A stretch of DNA of 64,000 bases from Prochlorococcus sp. AG-402-O16 (lineage in GTDB: Bacteria > Cyanobacteriota > Cyanobacteriia > PCC-6307 > Cyanobiaceae): contig QCIY01000010.1 in NCBI GenBank assembly GCA_003216415.1, positions 666 to 64,665 of the forward strand, given 5' to 3'. Below, piece by piece: positions 1,407 through 40,081 of this stretch. Under the pieces are notes generated by a model. It worked only from the letters and a program-made list of their open reading frames with translations. It was not told where the DNA came from and made no database searches. The first letter of the stretch is position 1. Each line of letters starts with the position of its first letter. The position numbers and the translations under genes were made by a program.

Positions 1407-2825
1407 ATGTCCAAGGCACATTTCGGTTTAATAGGTCTTGGTGTTATGGGCGAAAATTTAGTTCTTAACGCAGAGAGAAATGGATTTTCTAGTGTAGTTT
1501 TTAATAGAACTTTTTCAAAAACTGAAGAATTTTTACAAGGTCGGGGCCTTGGAAAGAATATTGAGGGAGCTGAAACCCTTCAAGAATTTGTTAACAAGCT
1601 AGAGAGACCTAGAAGAATTCTAATGATGGTAAAAGCTGGACCCGCTACTGATGCTGTTATAGACAATATTTCTGGGTATCTCGAGGAAGGAGATTTATTA
1701 ATTGATGGTGGCAATTCTCAATTTAAAGATACAGAAAGAAGGGTAAATACTCTTGAAAGTAAAAGTTTTGGATACATAGGAATGGGAGTCTCAGGTGGAG
1801 CCAAAGGGGCTCTTGAAGGCCCAAGTATGATGCCTGGCGGTACAAAGGCTTCATATGATGCAATAGAAAGCTTATTAACTAAGATGGCTGCCAAAGTTGA
1901 AGACGGACCATGCGTCGCATATGTTGGGCCAGGAGGCTCAGGTCATTTTGTAAAAACTGTTCATAATGGAATTGAATATGGAATTGAACAAATACTTGCA
2001 GAAGCTTATGACCTTATGAAAAGAGTTAAAGGTATGAATGGAAAGCAGATGTCAGAGGTATTAGGTATTTGGAATAATACTGATCAATTAGCTTCTTATC
2101 TTGTTGAGATAACAGAGATTTGTCTAAATACAAAAGATGATATAACTGGAGATGATGTAGTGGAGAAAATATTAGATAAGGCTGGCCAGAAAGGTACTGG
2201 GTTATGGACTGTTGTAAGTGCTTTAGAACTTGGGGTATCAGTCCCAACGATTTATGCATCTTTAAATGCAAGAGTAATGAGTTCTTTAAAAGATCAACGT
2301 AGTGAGATTGAAAAAACTATTCCAACTAAAGAGATAGAGGATTTTGATTTAGGAAATATATCAGATGGAATGAAACCTTTATTTGATGCTGTAGTCCTTG
2401 CCACAATTGCTAGCTATGCCCAAGGAATGGATATTTTAAGAGAAGCATCTTCAGTATATAACTATGGTTTGAATATGCCGTCAATTGCCCAAATATGGAA
2501 AGGTGGTTGCATAATTAGATCAAAATTATTAAGCAAAATTCAAAGTGCTTATAACAAAGACCCTAATCTAAAAAATTTAATTTTTGATGATTGGTTCAAT
2601 AATGAAATCGCGACAAGATTAGATAACTTAGCCAAAGTAGTTTCTTTATCTACAAAAGCTGGTATACCAGTCCCATGTCTATCTAGTACCTTAGATTATT
2701 TGAATAGTTATAGAACAAATAGACTTCCTCAGAATCTTGTTCAGGCGATGAGAGATTGTTTTGGATCTCATACTTATGAAAGAATTGATAAGGAAGGTAG
2801 TTTTCATACTGAATGGATGAAATGA
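1407..2825 (+). CDS. gnd: 6-phosphogluconate dehydrogenase (decarboxylating)
   Basis: GLIGLGVMG Rossmann motif, GHFVKTVHNGIEYG, QAMRDCFGSHTYER. Confidence 0.97.
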   Translation: MSKAHFGLIGLGVMGENLVLNAERNGFSSVVFNRTFSKTEEFLQGRGLGKNIEGAETLQEFVNKLERPRRILMMVKAGPATDAVIDNISGYLEEGDLLIDGGNSQFKDTERRVNTLESKSFGYIGMGVSGGAKGALEGPSMMPGGTKASYDAIESLLTKMAAKVEDGPCVAYVGPGGSGHFVKTVHNGIEYGIEQILAEAYDLMKRVKGMNGKQMSEVLGIWNNTDQLASYLVEITEICLNTKDDITGDDVVEKILDKAGQKGTGLWTVVSALELGVSVPTIYASLNARVMSSLKDQRSEIEKTIPTKEIEDFDLGNISDGMKPLFDAVVLATIASYAQGMDILREASSVYNYGLNMPSIAQIWKGGCIIRSKLLSKIQSAYNKDPNLKNLIFDDWFNNEIATRLDNLAKVVSLSTKAGIPVPCLSSTLDYLNSYRTNRLPQNLVQAMRDCFGSHTYERIDKEGSFHTEWMK

Positions 2826-3550
2826 TTGAAAAGGTCAAAAATGGATATACCTTAAATATATACAAAGACAAGTTAGAACTTTCAACAGCGGTTTTTAAGT
2901 TTATTGAAAGTCGAATTATTAAAACTTTAAAAAAGAAAAACAGATTTAAATTTTGTGTAAGTGGAGGTTCAACGCCTAAATCTGTTTATCAGCTTCTATC
3001 AAATAGTGATCTTAGATGGGATATGGTTGATGTTTTTTTAGGGGACGAAAGATGTGTTGATCCAAATTCTGAATTAAGTAACTCGTTAATGTTGAAAAAT
3101 TCATTGTTAAATAATTATGGATCTAAAGCTTTTTTTTATGAAATTTTCAATGATTTAAAGGCTGACCAAGAAGCTACAAAAAATCAATTTATTTCTAAAT
3201 TATTTGAAAAATGCGGATCAAACCCTCCTTCCTTTGATTTAACTTTATTAGGTCTTGGAGACGATGGTCATACTGCTTCACTATTTCCTTATCAAAAAAA
3301 TAATAATGTAGATGATTTTGTGATTTTTAATGAAGGGAAAGGATTAAAAAGAATTTCATTAACTCCAAAGGTCCTTTCATCATCATCAAAGATAGTATTT
3401 TTGGTTAGTGGAGCCTCTAAAAGAATCGCTCTTGAGAGGTTATTAGATGAAAAAGAACCTCCCGATAGAACACCATCAAAATTAATAAAATCTATTAATC
3501 AAATTTCAATATTTTGTGATCAAGAATCAGCTAAACAAATAGAAATTTAG
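2822..3550 (+). CDS. pgl: 6-phosphogluconolactonase
   Basis: SGGSTP, FLGDERCV, LGLGDDGHTASLFP; ATG at 2822 forms an ATGA overlap with the gnd stop (track start 2813). Confidence 0.93.
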   Translation: MIEKVKNGYTLNIYKDKLELSTAVFKFIESRIIKTLKKKNRFKFCVSGGSTPKSVYQLLSNSDLRWDMVDVFLGDERCVDPNSELSNSLMLKNSLLNNYGSKAFFYEIFNDLKADQEATKNQFISKLFEKCGSNPPSFDLTLLGLGDDGHTASLFPYQKNNNVDDFVIFNEGKGLKRISLTPKVLSSSSKIVFLVSGASKRIALERLLDEKEPPDRTPSKLIKSINQISIFCDQESAKQIEI

Positions 3551-4525: not shown

Positions 4526-6199
4526 TTATAAATCAGTAACAGCTCCTAAACTTGATGTGCTTACTATTCTTGAATATTTTGAAAGTATACCTCTTTTGTA
4601 TTTTTGTGTAGGTTTTACCCAATCTTTCTTTCTTTTTTCTAATTCTTCGTCAGATAAATCAACCTCTATTAGTTGTTTTACAGCATCTATGGTGATTAAA
4701 TCACCTTGTTTTATAAGTGCTATGTTTCCGCCAACAGCAGCCTCTGGAGCGATATGACCAACAACTAGACCGTAGGTACCACCGCTAAATCTGCCATCGG
4801 TAATTAAAGCTACCTTCTCTCCGAGCCCTTGACCAACAATCGCAGATGTTGGGGCTAACATTTCTCTCATTCCTGGCCCTCCTACGGGCCCTTCGTTTCT
4901 AATAACAACGACATCGCCTGCTTTGATATCGTTATTTAGTATCGATTTTAAACAATCCTCTTCACTTTCAAAAATCTTTGCTGGACCAGTTAATACAGGG
5001 TTTTTTACTCCACTAATTTTTGCTACAGAACCTTCGCTTGCTAAGTTACCTTTTAAGATTGCTAGATGTCCTTTTTTATAAAGAGGGTCATCTATTTCCC
5101 TTATTACATTTTGATTTGTTGGAGGCTTATCTGGAATATTTTGTAAGTATTCTGAGATGGTTTTACCTTCAATGTTTTTACATTCACCATGAATTAATCC
5201 TGCATTCAAAAGTATTTTCATTACTTGTGGAATCCCGCCTGCATTATGAAGGTCTACCGTCACAAATTTTCCACTAGGTTTAAGGTCACAAATAACAGGT
5301 ACTTTTTGTCTTATTCTCTCAAAATCATTAATGTTGATATCTATTCCTGCTGTATTTGCAATGGCTAAGATGTGCAACACCGCATTTGTTGATCCTCCAA
5401 TGGCCATAATTACTGATATTGCATTTTCAAATGCTTTCTTAGTCATTAGGTCTAGAGGTCTTATATCTTTTTCTATTGCAGAGACTAATATCTCAGCACT
5501 TTTATCTGCACTTATTTCTTTTTCAAGATCTTCAGCAGCCATAGTTGAACTGTGAGGAAGACTTAAACCTAATACTTCAATAACCGCAGACATTGTATTA
5601 GCTGTAAACATTCCTCCACAGCTACCAGCACCAGGAATACAATTTTTCTCAACTTGGATTAACCTTTCTTCATTAATTTTGCCTGATGTTAATTGTCCAA
5701 CAGCTTCAAATGCGCTAACAACAGTAAGATCTTCTCCATGTAATTTCCCTGGTTTAATTGTCCCTCCATAAATGAAAATTGAGGGAATATTCATTCTTGC
5801 AATTGCTATCATGGCACCTGGCATATTTTTGTCACATCCACCTATAGCAAGCACTCCATCCATACTCTGAGCATTGCATGCTGTTTCAATTGAATCAGCA
5901 ATAACTTCTCTTGAAACTAAGGAATATTTCATACCTTCTGTTCCCATAGAAATTCCATCACTTACTGTGATCGTTCCGAACATTTGAGGCATCCCACCGG
6001 ATCTCTTTATTGACTCTTCAGCTCTGAGAGCTAACTTATTTAAACCTATATTGCATGGTGTTATGGTGCTGTATCCATTGGCCACTCCGATAATAGGTTT
6101 ATTAAAATCTTCATCATTAAATCCAACAGCTCTTAACATAGATCTGTTTGGGGATCTTTGCACACCTTGTGTTATTGCAGATGATCTGAGTTTATTCAT
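4526..6199 (-). CDS. ilvD: Dihydroxy-acid dehydratase
   Basis: [32 protein letters not shown]. Confidence 0.97.
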
Positions 6200-32131: not shown

Positions 32132-32719
32132 TTATAGCGGCGATGTTTCAATAAAAGAAGGTGCAACACTGACTGTTTGGGTTCCAATAGGTGCTATTAA
32201 TAACTCAGATGTTCTTAATTTAGAAATTAATCTTGTTGATGTTACACGAGTTGAGCCGATTAATTCACCAATCCTTTCGTGAGTTAACCTAAAAGGTAAC
32301 TCACACCATTGACCACATCTTCTACCTAAACGATTTACTAGTATTGAAAACAATGCTTGTAAACGCTGTTCTGCATTTCCTAGGTGTCTAATTCTAAGGA
32401 GTTGCAAAGTCCATTCATTTACTGCATCAAAACCAATATTCTCATCAATATTTACATTGCTATGAAAAGATAAATCTGTTAGTGCTTCAACACAGACACC
32501 TTCGCTGCATAAAAGGTCCGTTCTTAATTGATCACCTGATTGTAAAAATGCTAGTGTCATGCCTTCAGTTTCTTCACAAGGGCAATAAACTCTAGCTATT
32601 CCAGTTTCAACCTCTAGGCATGTGCCTTTTGGTCTTGATGAAGGGTCTATTAAAACGGATTGCCCAGTTATAATCCTTACTGATTTTGACGGAGATTCCC
32701 CATAACAATGGAAATTCAT
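32132..32719 (-). CDS. Crp/Fnr family transcriptional regulator, Cys-rich
   Basis: C-terminal HTH LTHERIGELIGSTRVTSTRLISKL; start moved to ATG 32719. Confidence 0.88.
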   Translation of the reverse strand: MNFHCYGESPSKSVRIITGQSVLIDPSSRPKGTCLEVETGIARVYCPCEETEGMTLAFLQSGDQLRTDLLCSEGVCVEALTDLSFHSNVNIDENIGFDAVNEWTLQLLRIRHLGNAEQRLQALFSILVNRLGRRCGQWCELPFRLTHERIGELIGSTRVTSTRLISKLRTSELLIAPIGTQTVSVAPSFIETSPL

Positions 32720-33942: not shown

Positions 33943-35265
33943 TTATATTATTAACATAAAAAATATAAGTGGAGCAGCGAATCTTAAAAATGTTTTTCTA
34001 ATAATATCTATATTATTTATAATTTCTAATTTTTTTATCTCTGGAGGATATTTCAATATAACTTTGTCGTATACATTAGGATTTTGGGCTTTATTAATAT
34101 TTTTCCATGGTTCATCTTTATCTTCAGATTTCTTGTACCATTTCCAAAAGTAATTTATTATTCTGTCTTCTCCCAATAATTTTATTTCATCTTTACTTAT
34201 AAACCCCATATTGTGATTATATGTTTGCGTTTTTAAAATCATATAATCCTCATCAAATATCTTATAAAAAATTTTTCTTTGATTCTCTTTAAATAACATG
34301 AGGTTATTAAGAAGTTTATTTTTTAAAAATTTCCTGTAGTGTCTTACTATTACTCTTGCTTTGTTATCTCCTAGTGGAATATGGTCTAAAACTTGTAAAT
34401 ATCTAGCTAAAGAAGGATCCCCCTTATAAATTAATATCCTTCCAGGTGGCATGTATTTTATTCGGATAAATTCTTTTGTAGAGTCATTCTTGTAGTAATA
34501 AATACTTTCAATGTATTTGGGAGTAACATTAATTTTCTGATTAAAACTAACTAGTACGTTTTTATTAACATCTTTATCAGGGATTGTATCCCCGTGAACC
34601 CAAAAAAGATGAAGGATATCTAAGTGATTTTCAATTATCCTTGACCAATCACATTTAAAGTCAACTAATACCTCTTCAGATACATAGTCCTCAATTGAAA
34701 AACCATTATCAGATAATTCGTAGTTACTTATAGGTGAATCTTCGCTTGTATTGTTTAAATCAGTTTCAGATTTTTTAGAAAAATGTACAAAAATATATCC
34801 ATTTTTTTCTAAAGCTTTGTATTGAGATAAGTGGATTCTTTTGGCGTAGTTATCGTAGTTATTATCAACTATGTGACTGCATGTTATTCTATCGAGATTT
34901 TGGCAACTTCCACTAGATGAGAATTTAGCTCCATGATATGGACAAGTTATTACTCCATCTGATAAAGTTCCCCCAAAAAAGGAGGCTCCCCTATGTGGAC
35001 AAATATTTTTAATGCATCTAACATTTTTATTCTCATCTCTATAAATAACAAGAGGCTCATCATAGAGTGAAAAATAATGTAGCTTATTTTTTTTTAGTTC
35101 TTTTGAGGGACAAATTGCATACCAACCAAATAAACCTATTTTTAATTCATTTTGATTTTCTCTAATATCTAACGAGTCAATTTTTACTACCGTTCCTTTT
35201 TTAAATGGCTTAAGAACGGTATTAAAGTCTTGTGATTTAAAAAAATTAATTTGTCTGTTATCCAT
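33943..35265 (-). CDS. cao: Rieske non-heme iron oxygenase, probable chlorophyllide a oxygenase
   Basis: CPHRG...CPYHG Rieske motif and ENHLDILH...VH mononuclear Fe motif; CAO call rests on recalled Prochlorococcus context. Confidence 0.6.
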   Translation of the reverse strand: MDNRQINFFKSQDFNTVLKPFKKGTVVKIDSLDIRENQNELKIGLFGWYAICPSKELKKNKLHYFSLYDEPLVIYRDENKNVRCIKNICPHRGASFFGGTLSDGVITCPYHGAKFSSSGSCQNLDRITCSHIVDNNYDNYAKRIHLSQYKALEKNGYIFVHFSKKSETDLNNTSEDSPISNYELSDNGFSIEDYVSEEVLVDFKCDWSRIIENHLDILHLFWVHGDTIPDKDVNKNVLVSFNQKINVTPKYIESIYYYKNDSTKEFIRIKYMPPGRILIYKGDPSLARYLQVLDHIPLGDNKARVIVRHYRKFLKNKLLNNLMLFKENQRKIFYKIFDEDYMILKTQTYNHNMGFISKDEIKLLGEDRIINYFWKWYKKSEDKDEPWKNINKAQNPNVYDKVILKYPPEIKKLEIINNIDIIRKTFLRFAAPLIFFMLII

Positions 35266-36865: not shown

Positions 36866-37162
36866 TTAGTCAAATTCTATACCAACTTCTTCTTTTAAAT
36901 CTCTGTCCAAATCTGGAAGATGAGGTTCAACCCAATGATCTTTGTTATCAATACCAGCAGCATTTACATAATTCATAATGTGTTGATCCACTTGCTTGTA
37001 AAGATCATGCAAATTTAAATCCATACGAATATCATGTGCAATTTCAGAAACTTGTTTTTCTGTTAAACAATGATCTGGATGTAGTAAATCACAACATGGA
37101 ATTCTCTTTTCAATCAATTCATTTAAATTGATTTTTATTTCATAATCTTGATGGACAGTCAT
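36866..37162 (-). CDS. Hypothetical protein with CCxxxHPxHC motif
   Basis: 98 aa, His/Cys/Asp-rich. Confidence 0.75.
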   Translation of the reverse strand: MTVHQDYEIKINLNELIEKRIPCCDLLHPDHCLTEKQVSEIAHDIRMDLNLHDLYKQVDQHIMNYVNAAGIDNKDHWVEPHLPDLDRDLKEEVGIEFD

Positions 37163-37255: not shown

Positions 37256-37411
37256 TTAAATAAATAGATCTTCCAAGTCTTTATACAAATCATCATTCTC
37301 TTTTTGCTTTTCTACAGGGTCATGGTGATCTAATGAAAGTTCTTTTTTTGAGTTGTAGAAAAGATATCCAAGGGCTCCTAAAATTAAGGTTGTTGGTAAA
37401 ATCATTAGCAT
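37256..37411 (-). CDS. 51-aa single-TM microprotein (not in ORF track)
   Basis: MLMILPTTLILGALGYLFYNSKKELSLDHHDPVEKQKENDDLYKDLEDLFI. Confidence 0.55.
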   Translation of the reverse strand: MLMILPTTLILGALGYLFYNSKKELSLDHHDPVEKQKENDDLYKDLEDLFI

Positions 37412-37436
37412 TTAATTGACTTATAATGAATATAGT

Positions 37437-37462
37437 GCAACACTTATTACAGTCAAGTGCTG
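37437..37462. repeat. Inverted AAGTGYTG motif pair upstream of RHH gene
   Basis: CAACACTT-N9-AAGTGCTG; GCAACACTTATTA is the reverse complement of 37877-37889. Confidence 0.55.
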
Positions 37463-37480
37463 AACTTTAATTATTTTTAA

Positions 37481-37879
37481 ATGCCTACCAAGAAAAAAAG
37501 AGTTGGGTTTATTCCAAGAGAAGATGTTATGAGAATAATTGATAAGTTGAGCATAGAAAATAATTTAAGTAATTCAAAAATAATAAGTATTTTGGTAGAG
37601 GAAGCACTTGCTATAAGAGGTATATTTAATAAAAAAAATGGTAAAGTAACTCAATCATATCAACTTTCTAATGATCATTCACAATACTTATCTGATAATT
37701 CTGCTGACTTTATAGATAATGCAAAAATCTCAATTAATACTAAATTAGAAAATCATTTTACTCCTATTGAATCAACCCATTTAAATGAAGCAAATCAGGA
37801 GACTTTTGACTTACAAACTTATAAAAAGTTTTTATTATTCCTTAAATTTCAGGAAATGAATGATAAATATCATACTTAA
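37481..37879 (+). CDS. Ribbon-helix-helix (CopG/Arc-like) domain protein
   Basis: KRVGF strand, EDVMRIIDKLS helix, turn, NSKIISILVEEAL helix. Confidence 0.7.
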   Translation: MPTKKKRVGFIPREDVMRIIDKLSIENNLSNSKIISILVEEALAIRGIFNKKNGKVTQSYQLSNDHSQYLSDNSADFIDNAKISINTKLENHFTPIESTHLNEANQETFDLQTYKKFLLFLKFQEMNDKYHT

Positions 37880-37898
37880 TAAGTGTTGCTAAGTGCTG
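37877..37898. repeat. Tandem AAGTGYTG motifs downstream of RHH gene
   Basis: AAGTGTTG (37881-37888) and AAGTGCTG (37891-37898), 10-bp period. Confidence 0.55.
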
Positions 37899-38007
37899 TA
37901 CTGTGCGTTAAATTTAATTTGTATTTATGGGAGATATGCATATTAGAAATTATTTAACACCATTTCTAAAAAACTAAATTCAATTTATCTATAAAATAGT
38001 TATTCCT

Positions 38008-38322
38008 ATGAGCTCATCTCTCCCAGTTTTATCTGTAAATCTACTTCCTCCAGACAAGTTATATTGTAATTTTAGTCATTGGAGTTCCTTGTTCTCTCAA
38101 GATATGCAAATTCTATGGGATAGAGCCCATGGAGTACCTTTAGAAAAACTGCCAAAAGGTATTTCTGATATGATTTTTCCATATTTATTGCTTGCACTTT
38201 CTGACTATAAGACTACTCAAATAAATAAAATGAATGGAATAGGATTAGACAATCTATTAAGCCTTTGGTTTGATAAGTACTTATTAAATAAAAATGGTTA
38301 CTTCGAGCTAATTAAAAAATAA
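38008..38322 (+). CDS. Hypothetical protein
   Basis: 104-aa ORF in AT-rich islet, protein-like composition. Confidence 0.65.
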   Translation: MSSSLPVLSVNLLPPDKLYCNFSHWSSLFSQDMQILWDRAHGVPLEKLPKGISDMIFPYLLLALSDYKTTQINKMNGIGLDNLLSLWFDKYLLNKNGYFELIKK

Positions 38323-39156: not shown

Positions 39157-39336
39157 ATGAACAAAATTAATACTTTAAAACCATATACCGTTCATTATCG
39201 TGATTTTCAAAATATAAGATTAGAAAATTGTTTTTATGCTTTTGATGCTTACGAAGCAAGAACACTAGCGATGGAATTTAATAAGTATATAAGTGAGCAT
39301 CCTAATAGTATTGATCTTATTAGATGTGAAAAATGA
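39157..39336 (+). CDS. 59-aa hypothetical microprotein (not in ORF track)
   Basis: MNKINTLKPYTVHYRDFQNIRLENCFYAFDAYEARTLAMEFNKYISEHPNSIDLIRCEK. Confidence 0.7.
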   Translation: MNKINTLKPYTVHYRDFQNIRLENCFYAFDAYEARTLAMEFNKYISEHPNSIDLIRCEK

Positions 39337-39370: not shown

Positions 39371-40081
39371 TTAAACACTTAAGAACTTGTCAATAACTGA
39401 TTGACTTAACTCACTAGTATTTCCACTCGCAACAATGCCACCGCGTTGCATAGCGTAATATCTGTTTGCTTGCCTAACAAAATGCAAGTGTTGTTCAACT
39501 AATAAAACACCAATTCCAGTATCTCTAATTATCTGATTGATGGCATTTTCAATATCTAATACTATATTTGGCTGTATACCTTCCGTAGGTTCGTCAAGTA
39601 ATAGTATTTGTGGTTTGCCCAACAATGCTCTCGCAATTGCTAGTTGTTGTTGTTGACCTCCGCTGAGATCTCCTCCTTTCCTTTGAAGAAAGTCTTTTAG
39701 GATTGGAAACAAGTCATAAATAAATGGATCTATTTTCTTGTTCTTAGATAATCCACCTGGCAGAGATTCCATTCCTAGCATTAGGTTCTCTTCAACTGAT
39801 AAGTAAGGAATAATTTCTCTTCCTTGAGGAACGTAAGCCATTCCTTTTCTAGCCCTCTGATGAGGTGCCTTTCTATTAATATTTTCTCCAATTAAAAAAA
39901 TATCTCCTGTTTTTTGCTTTAACAAACCAATAAGTGATTTCAATAAAGTTGTTTTGCCTACTCCATTTCTTCCAATTAAACAAACCATTTCTCCTGATTT
40001 AACATTTAAATCTACATCTCTGAGAATATGACTCTCGCCATAGTAAGTATTTAATGATTTAATTTCCAGTAAATTTTCCAT
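39371..40081 (-). CDS. urtE: Urea ABC transporter ATP-binding subunit
   Basis: GRNGVGKTT, LSGGQQQQL, DEPTEGIQP; last gene of the urt operon. Confidence 0.95.
   Translation of the reverse strand: MENLLEIKSLNTYYGESHILRDVDLNVKSGEMVCLIGRNGVGKTTLLKSLIGLLKQKTGDIFLIGENINRKAPHQRARKGMAYVPQGREIIPYLSVEENLMLGMESLPGGLSKNKKIDPFIYDLFPILKDFLQRKGGDLSGGQQQQLAIARALLGKPQILLLDEPTEGIQPNIVLDIENAINQIIRDTGIGVLLVEQHLHFVRQANRYYAMQRGGIVASGNTSELSQSVIDKFLSV

Follow-up and report, generated by a model that had tools for sequence, protein, structure and literature searches.

A real and strongly conserved cis-regulatory architecture was found around an unannotated gene in a 64,000-nucleotide (nt) stretch of Prochlorococcus sp. 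AG-402-O16 DNA (contig QCIY01000010.1), which was analysed as a whole and is hereafter called the window. The gene encodes a 132-amino-acid (aa) protein resembling ribbon-helix-helix (RHH) regulators, and it is flanked by short palindromic sites of the form AGTG-N3-CACT. Two of these (sites A and B) lie between its start codon and that of a divergent gene for a single-transmembrane (single-TM) microprotein of 51 aa, and further copies follow its stop codon, ahead of a conserved gene for a 104-aa protein. The conservation of the sites is position-specific and extends to deeply divergent relatives. The explanation preferred here, with a probability of roughly 0.6, is that the 132-aa protein acts as an autorepressor: its operators would overlap two divergent promoters that are interleaved, and an auxiliary operator would lie ahead of the 104-aa gene.

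Conserved sites between the divergent genes

The window belongs to the chromosome of a high-light-clade Prochlorococcus (HLII-like), and the locus is part of a run of small genes located in it between a Rieske oxygenase gene (33943-35265) and urtE (39371-40081). Conservation was assessed in a set of close relatives comprising 80 species-representative genomes, each bearing a Prochlorococcus or picocyanobacterial single-cell label. They carry the 132-aa protein at 75-83% identity and, together with the window, provided 81 sequences of the high-light II (HLII) group. The features considered were the following, with pairwise identities referring to these 81 sequences:

37256-37411, minus strand: gene of the 51-aa single-TM microprotein, divergent from the RHH gene; present in 80/80 HLII loci
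37416-37421, plus strand: TTGACT, putative -35 element of the RHH gene promoter, P(+); pairwise identity 0.996
37428-37433: GAATAT; pairwise identity 0.996
37429-37434, minus strand: TATATT, putative -10 element of the microprotein promoter, P(-), from a promoter scan
37434-37444: site A, perfect 4-3-4 palindrome AGTGCAACACT; pairwise identity 1.00, invariant
37439-37444, plus strand: AACACT, putative -10 element of P(+), read from the sequence; right half of site A, 17 nt after TTGACT
37451-37456, minus strand: TTGACT, putative -35 element of P(-), from the promoter scan
37456-37466: site B, imperfect palindrome AGTGCTGAACT; pairwise identity 0.978; 22 bp (two helical turns) from site A
37481-37879, plus strand: gene of the 132-aa RHH-like protein, with its TAA stop at 37877-37879
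37882-37889: AGTGTTGC, immediately following the stop codon; copies the left two-thirds of site A in reverse complement and overlaps the putative -35 element TTGCTA (37886-37891)
37886-37914, plus strand: putative promoter of the 104-aa gene, read from the sequence: TTGCTA (37886-37891), 17 nt, TAAATT (37909-37914), with site C in the spacer
37892-37902: site C, AGTGCTGTACT (HLII consensus AGTGATGCACT)
38008-38322, plus strand: conserved gene of the 104-aa protein; present in 80/80 HLII loci

Between the start codons of the two divergent genes, the 69-bp intergenic region had a mean pairwise identity of 0.952, compared to 0.84-0.88 at the third codon positions of the flanking genes. This conservation was unevenly spread: variation fell in the spacer centre, the AT-rich leader, the TATAAT at 37422 and the N3 centres of the palindromes, the arms being fixed. 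Sites A and B and TTGACT are thus under selection. As the arms are conserved and the N3 centre is variable, the natural unit is AGTG-N3-CACT (37434-37444, 37456-37466 and 37892-37902). The initial annotation had instead described an 8-mer, AAGTGYTG, whose four copies are indeed located at 37438-37445 (minus strand) and at 37455-37462, 37881-37888 and 37891-37898 (plus strand), out of register with the conserved unit by one base. It had also described a 13-bp inverted repeat, which is exact, GCAACACTTATTA at 37437-37449 being the reverse complement of TAATAAGTGTTGC at 37877-37889, where it overlaps the TAA stop. The TATAAT that it had placed upstream was found at 37422-37427 as well; however, it is among the varying parts of the region, and its conservation is confined to HLII.

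In terms of statistics, AAGTGYTG occurred seven times in the 64 kb versus 3.1 expected, a number that was reached in 4 of 100 shuffles, so that the count taken alone is weak evidence; four of the seven copies were clustered within 461 bp (P = 5.1e-5 in a placement simulation). The length of the 13-bp repeat is not meaningful in itself, because a second perfect 13-bp inverted repeat was found in the same AT-rich kilobase and because, among the 81 HLII sequences, only the window reached 13 bp, the others having mostly 7-9 bp with the core GCAACAC[TT]. Conservation provides stronger evidence than the motif count that the sites are real, since the upstream pair appeared at -44/-27 in ~75 of the 80 relatives and at least one downstream copy in most of them, as an examination of the orthologous loci along the lines of the initial annotation revealed. 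Moreover, the perfect AGTG-N3-CACT occurred once in the 64-kb window (site A) versus 0.33 expected, and the palindrome was not seen elsewhere in the window or in the ±2.5-kb flanks of the 80 loci, one near-match in a coding region excepted. This near-palindrome, AGTGCATTACC, lies at ~39181-39191 inside a 59-aa open reading frame (ORF; 39157-39336), is the sole other recurrent match of the palindrome type in the flanks and is kept in 44/80 loci, probably by coding constraint. The core of site A, GTGCAACAC, had three copies in the window versus 0.4 expected; the two extra ones (5372-5380 in a 557-aa gene, and 32161-32169 in the low-coordinate end of a Crp-like gene) are coding and were not taken as sites.

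Regarding the promoters, P(-) was proposed by the promoter scan as TTGACT (37456-37451), 16 nt and TATATT (37434-37429) on the minus strand, with 10/12 matches and facing the microprotein gene. The AATATA of its -10 region was conserved across all AT-rich family members. Natural populations commonly showed a length polymorphism of one base, an additional A at 37472/37473, in the AT-rich leader close to the RHH start codon; it accounted for about a quarter to a half of the depth in DNA and RNA runs alike.

Sites after the stop codon

Directly after the stop codon of the RHH gene, GTGTTG[CT] (GTGTTGC in the window, 37883-37889) was present in 80/81 sequences, with a pairwise identity of 0.93 versus 0.75-0.81 for the neighbouring bases. 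Site C appeared as AGTG-N3-YACT in 59/81 sequences and in a relaxed form in 72/80, again with conserved arms and a variable centre. Both hexamers of the putative promoter of the 104-aa gene, TTGCTA and TAAATT, were well conserved.

The sites accompany the gene in distant relatives

A search for distant members over 1.8 billion cluster representatives retrieved 209 clusters. In the members listed, a near-invariant N-terminal part of ~48 residues (MPxxxKRxGFxP...LSxSKVxxILVEEALxxRG) is connected by a variable linker to a C-terminal helix (YxKFxxFLxFQ). From these, a divergent set of 11 loci was considered, with G+C contents of 25-42% and a protein 30-45% identical to that of the window, mostly located between the genes of AhpC, a SpoU methylase and CobU, and not beside urtE. 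Eight of the 11 loci had site A at -42 to -45 relative to the ATG. In seven of them (L081, L085-L088, L216 and L217), TTGAC was followed after exactly 12 nt by AGTG (AATG in L081 and L217). The overall layout was TTGAC, 12 nt, (T)AGTGCAACACT and, 20-22 bp further on, a second site (AAGTGTCACA, AAGTGTTACACT or AAGTGCAACACA). The equivalents of site B, at 20-22 bp from site A, were AGTGTCACA(C)T, AGTGTTACACT and AGTGCAACACA (L081, L082, L085-L088, L216 and L217), and those of the P(-) -35 element were TTGCAT or TTGCAC in L085-L088 and TTGACT in L081 and L217. In the two loci with 40-42% G+C, L082 and L211, TAGTGCGACACT was found at -44. Furthermore, a post-stop copy of the motif lay within ~25 nt of the stop codon in L088 (AGTGTCACACT), L216 (GTGTCACACT), L087 (GTGTGACACT) and L217 (AGTGATACACT).

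Matches to [AG]GTG-N3-YAC were counted on both strands of the 11 loci, with the following results:

66-bp upstream zone: 23 matches versus 0.15 expected
51 bp around the stop codon: 6 matches versus 0.12 expected
remaining 51.5 kb (background): 11 matches

Thus, the motifs behave as conserved operator-like sites tied to the RHH gene, as the initial annotation had suggested, following it at 30-45% protein identity into another genomic context.

The microprotein gene takes part in this association. A gene for a single-TM protein of 45-51 aa was divergently placed ~70-85 bp upstream in HLII, L081, L085-L088 and L216. The L081 microprotein is homologous to that of the window (E=2e-8), both ending in EDLFI, and holds the same divergent position in the other genomic context; the L087-type protein shows weak similarity to the window's. 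Since the gene is found beside the RHH gene in both HLII and divergent loci, the association of the two genes with the operators has outlasted a change of chromosomal context. In L083 (34% G+C), the upstream gene (2175-2294, minus strand) encodes not the TM microprotein but a 39-aa protein with a high-light-inducible (Hli/CAB) motif, AEKLNGWAAMIGF. On the downstream side, a tRNA gene on the opposite strand was read by eye from the sequence within ~30 nt after the RHH gene in L087 (~3400-3480), L088 (~3165-3250) and L216 (~1890-1970).

The 132-aa protein is probably a CopG-like RHH protein

A total of 6,311 relatives of the 132-aa protein were found in a large protein collection, the named ones being Prochlorococcus entries described as "hypothetical protein"; in marine data its sequence variants number more than 6,000. 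The gene is transcribed in situ, as metatranscriptome contigs cover 37481-37879, and it is well represented in metatranscriptomes. Its product is laid out as an RHH-like N-terminal domain (residues 1-48), a probably disordered linker (~49-105) and a conserved amphipathic C-terminal helix (~108-130). The AlphaFold2 (AF2) model contains helices at 13-27 and 31-45 after an extended N-terminus, disorder at 49-98 and a C-terminal helix at 111-130. When the family profile was aligned to CopG with hhalign, 36 columns matched at 36% identity (P=1e-4, probability 57%) in the correct strand register (KRVGFIP = KRLTITL). The top Foldseek matches in the PDB were the CopG-DNA complex, AtaR, Arc and CdbA, all of them RHH proteins, with E>1 for so short a domain. 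A strand followed by two helices within ~45 residues, which defines membership of the RHH group, was therefore seen in the AF2 model, the hhalign register and the Foldseek matches, with moderate strength. Moreover, Pfam RHH_5 matched 2/25 distant members (best E=0.0037), the PHROG "CopG-like transcriptional repressor" family matched at E=0.0065, and a PDB profile search returned CopG at E=0.36. Overall, four weak independent lines agree, which is moderate evidence that the N-terminal domain is a CopG-like RHH, and the RHH identity proposed by the initial annotation is accordingly regarded as probable.

As for a phage origin of the family, tblastn against phages returned nothing relevant. A "CopG family" regulator of strain MED4, PMM1176, has been discussed (PMC5082946; bioRxiv 10.64898/2026.04.15.718746); no sequence or name linking PMM1176 to the 132-aa family was found. 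Within the gene, both ends are strongly conserved and the linker (37646-37807, residues ~55-105) is hypervariable; contigs from other strains, in metagenomes and metatranscriptomes, "skip" it, and the depth drops 10- to 100-fold there.

A model of autorepression and the points against it

In the preferred reading, dimers of the 132-aa protein would recognise the palindrome AGTG-N3-CACT. Two dimers would occupy sites A and B, which are 22 bp apart and would thus place them on the same helix face, possibly held together by the conserved C-terminal helix. The putative promoters P(+), TTGACT-17-AACACT for the RHH gene, and P(-), TTGACT-16-TATATT for the microprotein gene, would be interleaved back to back. 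Site A would cover or abut both -10 elements, and site B would abut the minus-strand -35 element, just downstream of the plus-strand start. Because sites A and B overlap both promoters, their binding would be expected to repress both genes, resulting in autoregulation and co-regulation. Site C, placed within a promoter-like element, would repress the 104-aa gene in HLII, or loop to sites A and B as an auxiliary operator, or both. In L087, L088 and L216, the downstream neighbour is the convergent tRNA gene, so the post-stop site would be no promoter operator there, and an auxiliary, possibly looping, operator would be the more general reading.

The three genes concerned are single-copy core genes in all 80 streamlined HLII genomes, in the same order and relative orientation, and the flanking genes are all syntenic. 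The microprotein had a median identity of 86% in the 80 loci, and its gene was more conserved at codon positions 1+2 than at position 3 (0.932 vs 0.843). The 104-aa protein, likewise a core gene product, had a median identity of 94%; its AF2 model was of low confidence (pLDDT 54), and neither this protein nor the 51-aa one had any hit in Pfam, NCBIfam, PADLOC or PHROGs. The 104-aa gene begins 128 bp downstream of the RHH gene, and it is not the neighbour in other lineages where the RHH gene is retained together with the sites; it is a candidate member of the local regulon in HLII only. A small local regulon comprising the RHH gene, the divergent TM microprotein gene and, in HLII, the 104-aa gene, which was one of the two proposals of the initial annotation, is the best reading of these conserved operator-like sites.

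Several points weigh against it. The RHH signals, including the Foldseek E-values, are each below significance individually; neither an RHH family at E<=1 nor any family at all was found for the window protein in Pfam/NCBIfam, and the mean pLDDT of its AF2 model was 51. AACACT is a weak match to a -10 element (3/6). RNA contig ends recurred at 37448/9 in three metatranscriptomes; this is the most polymorphic base of the spacer, which makes them uninformative on the start site, and they were rejected as transcription starts, being probably assembly-graph breaks. Among the divergent loci, the L214 branch had no such motif upstream and L083 had a single site. The 11 loci correspond to about five independent lineages, so that formal (Poisson) P-values are overstated, the effect still being very large. 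Finally, another factor could bind the sites.

This last explanation survives best among the alternatives, unlikely as it is: the palindromes would bind a different trans-acting factor, or would be constrained core promoter elements, and the 132-aa protein would be regulated by them without binding them. Some of the conservation could be accounted for by promoter constraint by itself, given that site A covers parts of both putative -10 regions and that TTGAC is just as invariant; moreover, the protein is linked to the DNA only indirectly. However, the post-stop copy also appears in lineages with a convergent tRNA or another gene downstream, where it is not a promoter, the motif follows the RHH gene into a different genomic context, and the palindrome is restricted to this locus within the window and flanks scanned, apart from the coding near-match. 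Known operators did not provide a candidate either. Neither the CIRCE/HrcA operator (TTAGCACTC-N9-GAGTGCTAA), with which the upstream pair shares the 9-nt spacer and the AGTGCT core alone, nor the box of the cyanobacterial repressor TrcR (ATACTACACTTGTATTAC), whose ACACTT core alone is common, was matched in the window within 3 mismatches. A resemblance to the LexA box (TAGTGCA vs TAGTACA) was set aside, the halves being spaced differently.

Action at the RNA level is a considerably poorer candidate. The upstream pair could form a hairpin in the 5′ untranslated region, the palindromes small 4-bp hairpins, or the 13-bp repeat could pair the two mRNA ends, its complementarity joining the 5′ leader to the stop-codon region. 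The minus-strand fold of the upstream pair (-10.9 kcal/mol, z=-1.8) points in this direction, but such a hairpin would fall upstream of the predicted P(-) start, and the plus-strand folds were no better than shuffles (z=+0.4 and +0.9). The 8-bp stem with a 9-nt loop implied by the inverted pair of the initial annotation was not maintained across the family: in eight divergent sequences it was paired in 65.6% of cells, the same as in shuffled controls, and the outer pairs were lost without compensation. The 4-3-4 arms were complementary in 85.9% of cells with zero compensatory changes, which fits sequence-specific recognition by a protein and lends no support to an RNA stem. Furthermore, the long complementarity reached 13 bp in this genome alone (7-9 bp in most others), and there was no Rfam match.

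More improbable still is a toxin-antitoxin-like module, in which the RHH protein would be both antitoxin and autorepressor, with either the 104-aa protein or the hydrophobic microprotein from the divergent gene as the toxin. An RHH fold combined with an unstructured C-terminal part is found in many type II antitoxins, AtaR was among the fold matches, and the microprotein is like small membrane toxins in size and shape. However, no toxin, defence or toxin-antitoxin family matched any partner, the gene order (divergent, or 128 bp apart) is atypical of such pairs, and single-copy syntenic core genes in 80/80 HLII loci are unlike mobile toxin-antitoxin loci. The pairing with the 104-aa gene put forward in the initial annotation is not supported, as this gene, besides its distance, is preceded by a promoter-like site of its own and gives way to other neighbours in other lineages.

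The other proposal of the initial annotation, that the inverted repeats are the ends of an invertible or recombining cassette, can practically be dismissed: although an exact 13-bp repeat brackets the gene in this genome and the microprotein-RHH pair, found in two genomic contexts, has moved at least once, the orientation was identical in 80/80 loci, no strand-changing joints were detected in ~4,000 contigs from four marine DNA metagenomes (short contigs, giving moderate power; the sole "skips" lay in the hypervariable linker), the ORFs within ~2.5 kb are small with no recombinase-like one evident (seven were scanned without a match to a recombinase family), and the repeat, of 7-9 bp in relatives, does not enclose the microprotein gene, which took part in the move.

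Comparison with known systems

Among known systems, the nearest in function is TrcR (All0854) of Anabaena sp. PCC 7120. It is an RHH autorepressor of ~111 aa that is confined to cyanobacteria, has a footprint (-53 to -28) overlapping a TACACT -10 box and has been reported missing from Prochlorococcus (PMC10272220). By analogy, the 132-aa protein is alike in architecture without being a member of the TrcR family. Both proteins are small (~111 vs 132 aa) and restricted to cyanobacteria, with an N-terminal RHH (a probable one in the 132-aa protein) and a C-terminal extension. The conserved operator, in one case established and in the other predicted, lies ~25-50 nt upstream of the own start codon, overlaps a (T/A)ACACT -10-like hexamer and contains ACACTT. 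In contrast, no downstream site or divergent microprotein has been described for trcR. Metagenome contigs were scanned for the published operator and the ORFs following it were translated, which gave 85 TrcR-family proteins. Their 111-aa forms have a conserved helix-B leucine at position 44, matching the published TrcR-L44P mutant. Homology of the 132-aa protein to this family was not detected (profile-profile hhalign probability of 0.16%). Two matches taken from viral contigs as possible TrcR homologues were rejected as chance occurrences inside coding regions.

With regard to other RHH proteins, CopG of plasmid pMV158, from the Arc/MetJ/CopG superfamily, was the best match in sequence and fold, with an agreeing beta-alpha-alpha register. 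It binds short pseudo-symmetric elements overlapping promoter hexamers, as is predicted for the 132-aa protein; it differs in having 45 aa and no extension and in being plasmid-borne. The Mnt repressor of phage P22 combines an N-terminal RHH with a C-terminal tetramerisation helix that joins two dimers on half-operators, on one face of the DNA. This is the architecture proposed for sites A and B, the 132-aa protein differing by its variable linker of ~55 residues. The lac (O1/O2), gal (OE/OI) and deo systems pair a promoter operator with another one placed a few hundred bp off, either inside the regulated gene or shortly past its end. For the RHH locus, however, looping is purely hypothetical, and the role of the downstream site in HLII may be no more than to control the next promoter.

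A more far-reaching combination of these elements is speculative and, taken as a whole, quite unlikely. Marine picocyanobacteria would have in the 132-aa protein a core transcription factor that has gone unrecognised and fills the TrcR niche, its operator-enclosed gene would be looped by a tetramer formed through the C-terminal helix, and the co-inherited microprotein would control its activity, for instance through sequestration of the repressor at the membrane. The block of microprotein gene, operator, RHH gene and operator would then be a self-contained switch that moved between two chromosomal contexts.

No phototroph on Earth is more abundant than Prochlorococcus, which is genetically intractable and whose transcription factors are very few. 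Each further regulator of this organism with a defined DNA motif helps to rebuild its regulatory network. AGTG-N3-CACT is a ready, testable operator, and a genome-wide scan for it would yield a candidate regulon. The interest of the finding is moderate and lies in the organism and in a motif through which the regulon can be tested directly. Moreover, these genomes encode many unexplained microproteins, and for the membrane microprotein considered here the conserved pairing with the RHH gene gives a lead to its function.

Other observations

Apart from the genes discussed above, downstream of the RHH gene in L082 a tRNA-like 3′ end and a DUF3987 (primase-like) gene were observed (positions noted: ~2950-2980 and 5302-5327), which may mark an integration site of a mobile element. 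In two entries of the distant family, P0220 and P0231, the RHH N-terminus was fused to an unrelated C-terminal part, Omp85-like in one and HisE-like in the other, probably as a result of chimeric gene calling on short contigs. Finally, on the other side of the microprotein gene, a 98-aa CCxxxHPxHC protein (36866-37162, minus strand) matched the PHROG family phrog_15479 (E=3e-47), a match that places it in a family common to phages; this protein was 98% conserved and present in 80/80 HLII loci.

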